Shown: one piece after another, positions 6,050 through 6,620 of the stretch
How positions within the stretch are numbered: the stretch's first letter is position 1
Layout: each line of letters opens with the position of its first letter
Source of the DNA: Campylobacterota bacterium
GTDB lineage: Bacteria; Campylobacterota; Campylobacteria; Campylobacterales; Sulfurimonadaceae
Direction of reading: 5' to 3'
Length of the DNA: 10,701 nucleotides
NCBI GenBank assembly: GCA_034717975.1
Contig: JAYEMF010000109.1
Location: 1-10,701 of the forward strand
Made by a program: the position numbers and the translations under genes
The notes under the pieces: generated by a model
The model's input: only the letters and a program-made list of their open reading frames with translations
The model's database searches: none
Told to the model about the DNA's origin: nothing

Positions 6050-6170
6050 ACGCCAAACGAACAAAGTACCCAAAGGGCATAAATCGTTTGACTACGCTAT
6101 CGCTATGTTCGCTACGGCAGCATGTTCTCACACCCCTGGTGCTTTAGGGTTCAGTCGTCGAACTGTTAGG
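6050..6170. repeat. Dispersed intergenic repeat, family B, copy 3 (most complete)
   Basis: The left part matches 2143-2192 and the right part matches 1-80. It contains the hairpin CAAACGA (6054-6060)/TCGTTTG (6084-6090) and a CGCT-rich tract. Confidence 0.7.
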
Positions 6171-6218
6171 TACTATGGCTATTAAAACCTATTCCTGTAT
6201 GAAGGGGCTGTGGCTTAA

Positions 6219-6570
6219 GGACACCTCTAAAAACCCTGTATATCATCAGAGGGCAAAGAAGGTGTAAGATTTTGTTCTAAGGTTTTGCAGGACTACCCGT
6301 AGGTAAATGTGCGAAGCCTGCCCTTGGGTGCAAGAGATTTTAGGACGGAAGCTTGCGCCTTATTTGCCCTCCCCAAGGGCGTCACACACATTAAGCAACT
6401 TTACTCGATGAAAATATGCCACTGGCATATTTCTCATTCGAGATATCGTTAGAACCTTGCAACCGTAACCAGTTACGCTAGCAAGAACCTGCCTTGCACC
6501 CAAGGGCAGGCTTCGCACATCACAAAGTCGTATGCAACGCTGATGATACACAGGGTTTTTAGAGGTGTCC
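6219..6570. mobile_element. 352-bp non-autonomous MITE, family A, copy 1 (complete)
   Basis: 31-bp TIRs GGACACCTCTAAAAACCCTGT(A/G)TATCATCAG at 6219-6249 and 6540-6570 differ by 1 mismatch. TTAA flanks both sides (6215-6218, 6571-6574). No transposase is present and a second copy starts at 10501. Confidence 0.92.
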
Positions 6571-6620
6571 TTAAATAAATTTGTTATTTTTATTTCAGTT
6601 TTATTGTGCAGAATGAGTCA

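Follow-up and report, generated by a model that had tools for sequence, protein, structure and literature searches.

The stretch of DNA analysed here (the window) comprises the 10,701 nucleotides of contig JAYEMF010000109.1 from a Campylobacterota bacterium of the Sulfurimonadaceae (assembly GCA_034717975.1, G000 below), in which a repeated element at positions 6219-6570 is flanked by divergent dapD-like and ankyrin genes. The element is a real IS5-group MITE, or miniature inverted-repeat transposable element, of the ordinary kind. Its interior of about 230 nt is composed of two homologous hairpins of about 99 nt, referred to as the left and right arms, placed head to head with a 3-bp mini-hairpin. 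For either arm, the best-folding strand is the one read inward from its own terminal inverted repeat (TIR). The features of the window copy are as follows.

6215..6218, no strand: left target-site duplication TTAA, matching the right duplication; a single TTAA stands at the empty site in G002
6219..6249, + strand: left TIR, 31 bp, of IS5-group type
6250..6370, + strand: left arm, a long imperfect hairpin favoured on the plus strand (covariance model R2, E 9e-12)
within 6250..6370, + strand: left-arm loops, a tandem GA-type loop and a 3x2 purine loop, with the apical hairpin at 6294-6305
6309..6330, + strand: optional 22-nt insert of the left arm, present in 11/23 left arms scored in this genome
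6371..6379, no strand: central mini-hairpin CCC-NNN-GGG between the arms, with the loop CAA in the window copy
6380..6539, - strand: right arm, homologue of the left arm, favoured on the minus strand
6392..6446, + strand: optional hairpin module of about 55 nt, in place of about 13 nt of the right arm
6491-6496 and 6447-6450, - strand: conserved outer loop of the right arm, CAAGGC facing AACG
about 6464-6477, - strand: apical hairpin of the right arm
6497..6518, - strand: optional 22-nt insert of the right arm, inverted relative to 6309-6330, in 7/37 right arms scored
6540..6570, - strand: right TIR, sharing a private GGACAC variant with the left TIR
6571..6574, no strand: right target-site duplication TTAA
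10501..10701, - strand: second family copy cut by the contig end, with right TIR, right arm with insert and the start of a left arm

The dapD-ankyrin interval of G002, a genome of the same genus, is 179 nt in length and holds a single TTAA without the element, which is missing from this locus in the four relatives with enough flanking sequence (G002 and three others). Because the bases just left of the empty TTAA in G002 resemble a TIR end, an older remnant is possible at that site. Of the first 18 nt of the left TIR, 17 agree with the termini of autonomous IS5 elements (all 18 in the common form of the family), and this 18-nt start also marks both limits of elements of 1.0-1.3 kb from several phyla. 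The same TIR opens L101, L071 and L054 (1273-1320 bp) exactly and also opens L154 from G002, and proteins encoded by all four exceed the NF033581 (IS5 group) cut-off, bearing out the IS5 relationship guessed in the initial annotation of this DNA. Across the family, 40 of 72 elements are bordered by a perfect 4-bp repeat, as are 7 of the 10 full copies in this genome, and the family is short, multicopy and non-coding, with a longest stop-free stretch of 69 codons. Searched against Rfam, the window matched nothing at E<=1, and 20 related loci gave only sub-threshold miRNA hairpin matches.

Among 401 genomes of the order, 15, spread over seven families, have the IS5-ended base form, which also occurs at 38 metagenome loci. 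A set of 72 elements was reduced to 39 below 90% identity (mean 0.64). Folded as RNA, the left arm (98-100 nt) is more stable on the plus strand in 39/39 elements, by about 12 kcal/mol, and the right arm on the minus strand in 37/39, by about 9 kcal/mol, with z-scores giving these preferences in 29/39 and 30/39 elements, respectively. The window copy had led the initial annotation to propose such opposite-strand asymmetry from its G-U pairs. Recounting showed that its left stem (6249-6289 with 6329-6371) indeed contains 31 Watson-Crick pairs, 8 plus-strand G-U pairs, 2 other mismatches and a 2-nt bulge, and that its right segments (6379-6389 with 6530-6540, and 6397-6403 with 6523-6529) contain 3 and 2 A-C oppositions that become G-U pairs on the minus strand. 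As isolated RNA, the left half folds at -59.4 (+) versus -35.1 (-) kcal/mol and the right half at -46.6 (+) versus -63.6 (-) kcal/mol. In whole elements (n=58) the two strands have balanced energies, differing on average by -3.3 (sd 9.0) on -132 kcal/mol, and the whole window element has a folding z of -13.6 on each strand.

Covariation was scored in alignments A1 and A2, from which L163 was excluded because it carries an insert, leaving 38 rows. Two-sided changes occur at 25 of 29 right-arm and 34 of 38 left-arm pairs, and 95.9% (right) and 93.5% (left) of cells are paired versus 39-55% in controls with slid partners, the structures being derived from the alignments themselves and the rows being related to one another. 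In columns with a Watson-Crick majority, G-U exceeds A-C by 45:16 and 31:3 in the arms, versus 18:36 in the TIR control. Taken together, the opposite-strand arms, the covariation and the G-U bias uphold the earlier proposal of a symmetric device selected for its structure. The two arms align position by position, and the right-arm covariance model R1 detects left arms down to E 4e-4. The base form is predicted to fold as a four-way junction of TIR stem, left arm, CCC-NNN-GGG mini-hairpin and right arm. It is the loops that hold the conserved sequence, with CAAGGC facing AACG and a 3x2 purine loop below an apical TAGC-N4-GCTA hairpin; the loop positions A-G-x-C and A-A are unchanged in 38/38 rows. 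Of 72 base-form elements, 71 have R-N-A or its complement as the central loop. A likely role of the conserved purine loops is to bind a putative protein or to fix a tertiary fold.

This genome contains 58 classifiable family ends (24 left and 34 right), and of its 10 full copies 7 measure 267 bp. The window copy equals the base form plus three optional modules, namely two 22-nt inserts and the central hairpin swap at 6392-6446, the latter present in 6 of 32 scored copies. What had been read as a 28-nt core common to both halves is an insert and not a core, because the 22-nt module is optional among copies and is missing from the 262-268-bp base form; the core actually shared is the homologous arm of about 99 nt with its conserved internal loops. 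Similarly, pairing of the helix at 6397-6403 stands while its place in the constant design does not, as it lies within the optional module. In the full-length fold of the window copy, the two inverted 22-nt inserts pair mutually (P 0.999) and both arms have P of about 0; this copy is an atypical family member. TIR-TIR pairing has P 1.0 in the same fold, the arms being nested inside the TIR stem, contrary to the suggestion that they might block it. Three points argue against chimeric assembly of this three-insert copy, namely that its target-site duplications match, that both of its ends carry the private variant and that other copies have the same modules.

Relatives of the module of about 55 nt include two stand-alone copies on contig C39, within a longer tandem repeat (G000:C39:12469-12900), and other inserts in G001 and L125. 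The G001 copies L014 and L015 (374-375 bp) carry a second hairpin module, which is inverted, and a 13-nt right-arm insert. At G000:C99:21970-21983 a full copy appears to be inserted into an older TIR remnant, and at L035:2501-2767 stop-free frames of about 240 codons cross a full element on both strands. An inward promoter in the TIR was also considered, with a 9/12 match at both ends of the window copy, yet TAnnnT occurs in only 47 of 88 family ends and this candidate is not supported. Window positions 6050-6150 belong to another repeat family with 18 genome matches, missing from the orthologous interval of G002 and holding a CCC-AAA-GGG mini-hairpin insert that resembles those in the MITE.

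The same interior occurs with other ends. An R1 search with strict filters, in which 24 candidates were scored per genome, matched 11 of 151 class genomes, and the matches sit within different TIRs, their overall length staying at 262-273 bp. Across Campylobacterales the interior is shared by seven TIR types that can be told apart, namely the IS5 type and six others that begin GACTTCTTGC, ATACCAAA, GAGACCACTG, ATCACCGCAC, AACTGATGTT and AGTACCAGA. Identity between types at the best offset is 5-10 of 16, and three TACC-like types may share ancestry with each other. The AGTACCAGA type is also present in this genome beside the IS5 type, in two-arm elements at G000:C65:14386-14657 and C77:19350-19622; an additional end lies at C106:24640, and C130:65137 holds a TIR-only form. 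G003, G104 and G027 each hold two TIR types as well. TIR-only forms of 38-70 bp exist for the four TIR types examined. In arm trees built from 57 rows and 100 columns including paired sites (L163 and L244 excluded), a single clade of IS5-ended rows was rejected for both arms (p-AU 0.007 each), and the right arm of this genome clusters with GACTT-ended elements (98/100) while its left arm does not. Plasmid BLAST, five-genome patterns, viral scans and IS1182 loci yielded no partner transposase for the non-IS5 TIRs. Viral contigs with the outer motif had the stem in 4/120 cases versus 1% of shuffles, with none bounded by inverted repeats, and were taken as chance. We put the odds at about even that the interior is an older structured module independent of its ends.

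The fold was further found inside rRNA genes. In G106 the element forms a 272-nt insert in helix 10 of 16S rRNA in three operons, and the insert of L239/L385 is 272 nt near model position 208-215, that of L239 being without an open reading frame (ORF) of 70 aa. A long-helix-10 pattern matched 5/401 genomes. In predicted folds, the L381 and L385 inserts have the long base stem by which a helix-10 intervening sequence (IVS) is defined, and R1 recognises the two arms in the 16S inserts of both G106 and G038 (E 4e-16 to 1e-10). In the G106 insert, the base stem agrees with the second TIR type of this genome at 19/25 positions, as did 3/2000 shuffles, while that of G038 bears no resemblance to it. 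Three family-f12 16S inserts give signals for no more than the arm lying on the rRNA strand (R2 E 0.002, 0.02 and 2.5). Structured helix-10 inserts of similar size have been described in Campylobacter, their role reported as undetermined in the part of the source available (PMC11261738), and, likewise from part of the source, Nitratiruptor labii has a 268-bp helix-10 insert bifurcated on a stem (PMC7476070). These published IVS are like the present 16S loci in helix, approximate size and want of an ORF; the likeness is one of description, and the available parts of both sources propose no origin for them and make no connection to MITEs (PMC7476070, PMC11261738). Since the same fold occurs in elements with different TIRs and in 16S genes, it may be the source of unexplained 16S rRNA insertions of related bacteria. 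A lone arm also lies at L532:252-365 (G003), on the tRNA strand directly 5' of tRNA-Thr in a tRNA-Gly/Thr cluster.

We favour, at a probability of about 0.5, a model in which the element is cargo moved by a transposase and selected for its folding, whatever its orientation, within read-through RNA, from which RNase III could probably excise it. The mover would be an IS5 DDE transposase acting in trans, and selection would act on the fold in read-through RNA. The head-to-head arms would make the fold independent of insertion orientation, so whichever way a copy lands, a transcript would meet one correctly folded arm first and close a base stem of about 31 bp. This would collapse about 270 nt into a compact insert, which RNase III could excise as in Correia elements and rRNA inserts. 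Copies folding this way would be least harmful to the host and survive, and for this reason the module would outlast its ends and be re-fitted with new TIRs. RNase III is known to cleave the TIR stem of Correia/NEMIS elements, according to the accessible portions of PMC10969869 and PMC2229807.

Several observations weigh against this model. No NF033581 transposase was found in G000, which is a 149-contig assembly broken at repeats, in G001 or in the single-contig genomes G027 and G188, while an IS5 transposase is present in G002. With DNA parameters the same strand asymmetry is seen in 37/39 elements for each arm, the central loop would make an equally good GNA/ANA triloop in DNA and UNCG loop in RNA, and a UNCG-like reading of the apical loops lands on the non-preferred strand. 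Elements are commoner upstream of genes or between divergent genes, as in the window, than downstream; among 43 classified by crude ORF calls, 16 are in away-away, 24 in co-directional and 3 in convergent positions, with no clear orientation bias relative to genes. The rRNA strand folds better in 3/5 16S inserts, in one of them by <1 kcal/mol, being clearly the better folder in 2/5, and elsewhere the strands differ by about 4 kcal/mol at most. At L529:228-340 (G027), a long stem bears a lone arm that is antisense to the adjoining purD RNA motif RF01069, and the canonical right-arm inner loop has been lost in the family of this genome (0 descriptor hits beside its TIRs). With their 100 columns and paired sites, the arm trees are no more than suggestive.

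The rival that survives best, though we consider it unlikely, holds that the fold was selected as single-stranded DNA (ssDNA), be it lagging strand, transferred strand or extruded cruciform, where it would juxtapose the ends and template copying of one end onto the other, and where a nuclease or recombinase recognising it would deliver small inserts and swap TIRs and arms. Such copying accords with concerted change of the two ends, as TIR positions 19-30 show an identity of 0.84 within elements versus 0.41 between them (n=44) and the window copy has the same private change at both ends. The small inserts starting with YACCC follow TTG in five of five cases (the window twice, L074, L112 and L163), at conserved loops, but AAG instead precedes a comparable insert of a different repeat family. 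The R-N-A central loop on one strand (71/72), the differing trees of the left and right arms and the presence in the 22-nt insert of GCGAAGC, which we take to be a DNA mini-hairpin, would also suit ssDNA. Against it, the strand asymmetry is about three times greater with RNA than with DNA parameters, and there were no gene-flanking arms among 16 regions checked. The Y1/HUH genes of this genome (six PF01797 matches) are flanked by other repeats and not by arms, and membership of a REP/REPIN-RAYT system was rejected on the same grounds. Those flanking repeats resemble the TIRYT class (PMC3733652), the genes on C46, C113, C120 and C146 having TIRYT-like GGGG-type inverted repeats; two stand in tandem on C46, and one of the genes on these four contigs is truncated. 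An IS200/IS605-type tnpA lies on C57.

Domestication of the module as a host RNA element (a stabiliser, processing signal or protein sponge), with host benefit keeping the structure, is improbable. It would explain why the module is kept in all G106 rRNA operons and beside a tRNA, and in the parts available of PMC2229807 and PMC10969869 ERIC and Correia elements alter mRNA decay. Its spread is patchy, however (IS5 form 15/401 genomes, R1 11/151), with young near-identical copies and four relatives without the element at the window locus. We give little credence to covariation as a mutational by-product, in which template-switch correction of quasi-palindromes matches stems without selection. 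Concerted change of the two TIRs shows that such copying occurs, and hairpin-base deletions would yield the TIR-only forms of the four types examined; asymmetric loops would be erased by it, yet A-G-x-C and A-A are invariant in 38/38, and it leaves unexplained the opposite strand bias of arms without bias in TIRs as well as the constant length across TIR types. The TIR control has already largely refuted this reading. Finally, although Type I MITEs arise as decayed IS remnants (PMC10969869, in the part available), it is barely credible that the interior is a piece of a decayed IS5 transposase gene or a sub-terminal region, as the initial annotation had rightly denied, given that it lacks blastn similarity beyond the TIRs to eight long TIR-bounded elements and R1 matches at them, that its best tblastn E is 0.68 (9 proteins from TIR-bounded loci, including an L058 ORF that is probably not a transposase, and 73 elements) and that the same interior lies inside other TIR types.

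Single arms were found outside Campylobacterota. R1/R2 match single-arm IS5-ended MITEs L095 (Phnomibacter) and L082 (Tannerellaceae), with further matches of this kind at L130 and L115, and an arm descriptor matched 7/26 short IS5-ended MITEs and 20/39 right arms with 0 matches in 506 kb of background. Single long hairpins with similar loops are also seen in 117-184-bp IS5-ended MITEs of other phyla (L034, L043, L064, L068, L107, L114, L133 and L139), while IS5-ended MITEs L036, L042, L067 and L131 hold CGTC-type palindromes. On a Spirochaetaceae contig, 134-135-bp IS5-ended MITEs (L104-L106) recur every ~2.3 kb between similar genes, an arrangement resembling a tandem gene array built by MITE pairs. 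Compared with the usual IS5-group NF033581 MITEs, the present element is alike in its TIR, its 4-bp A/T-rich duplication, its many intergenic copies and its lack of coding, but differs in an interior unrelated to the IS, structurally selected and common to other TIRs.

Using a published ERIC2 primer (available in part of PMC3866615), 13 E. coli K-12 ERIC loci were located. ERIC/IRU (127 bp) is one long hairpin with the same loop-motif order as the arm (AAGGC ... GGA/GA loop under an apical hairpin ... AACGC), found on the better-folding strand in 13/13 loci. It differs in being a single arm with TA ends and a longer middle stem, the present elements having 267-352 bp, two arms and IS5 ends. 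The arm descriptor matched 1/13 loci in its strict form and 3/13 when relaxed post hoc (0 on the other strand), with 2/2600 shuffles and 13 background matches in 5.05 Mb for the relaxed form, and neither R1 nor R2 detected ERIC. The likeness is thus a resemblance in loop motifs, not demonstrated homology. Other systems were compared by description, from the available parts of the sources. The bcr1 element of the Bacillus cereus group is likewise cruciform-like with two independent stem-loops, compensatory changes and transcription, but is about 155 bp with 5-bp repeats, and the part of the account available mentions neither opposite-strand arms nor TIR exchange (PMC3184786). CIR of Caulobacter/Brucella also has two linker-joined arms and conserved structure, but is about 110 bp with a GANTC motif and no TIR stem (PMC2229807). 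Correia/NEMIS elements share an optional internal module, but as described there are single hairpins with a TA target and no two-arm interior (PMC10969869, PMC2229807). Literature searches, covering mostly papers available without subscription, listed no title or abstract with an account of this family, of an interior spanning TIR types or of a MITE origin of helix-10 inserts.

Elsewhere in the window, a 25-nt A/T-rich near-palindrome occurs twice at 1938-2085 with a spacing of 123 nt, upstream of a CI-like/S24 regulator at 2275, and is possibly an operator.

The interiors of MITEs are usually taken as leftover IS sequence or as generic hairpins specific to a family. Here, the ends change around one interior that keeps its conserved loops and its length, so that the interior is the lineage and the TIRs are exchangeable. 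The MITE itself being ordinary, what is unusual is the conserved two-arm module it carries, which passes from one TIR type to another and also into 16S rRNA. More tentatively, the arm might be a selfish structured module of ancient origin, distinct from all transposons, whose loop code a protein recognises. It would borrow its ends from the transposase family active at the time, being single in MITEs of several phyla (possibly including ERIC), doubled head to head in Campylobacterales and ancestral to their 16S helix-10 IVS. The family offers a concrete candidate for where the structured helix-10 inserts in the 16S rRNA of Campylobacterota came from, and a defined loop motif, with a hint that ERIC shares it, that may be usable as bait for a protein.
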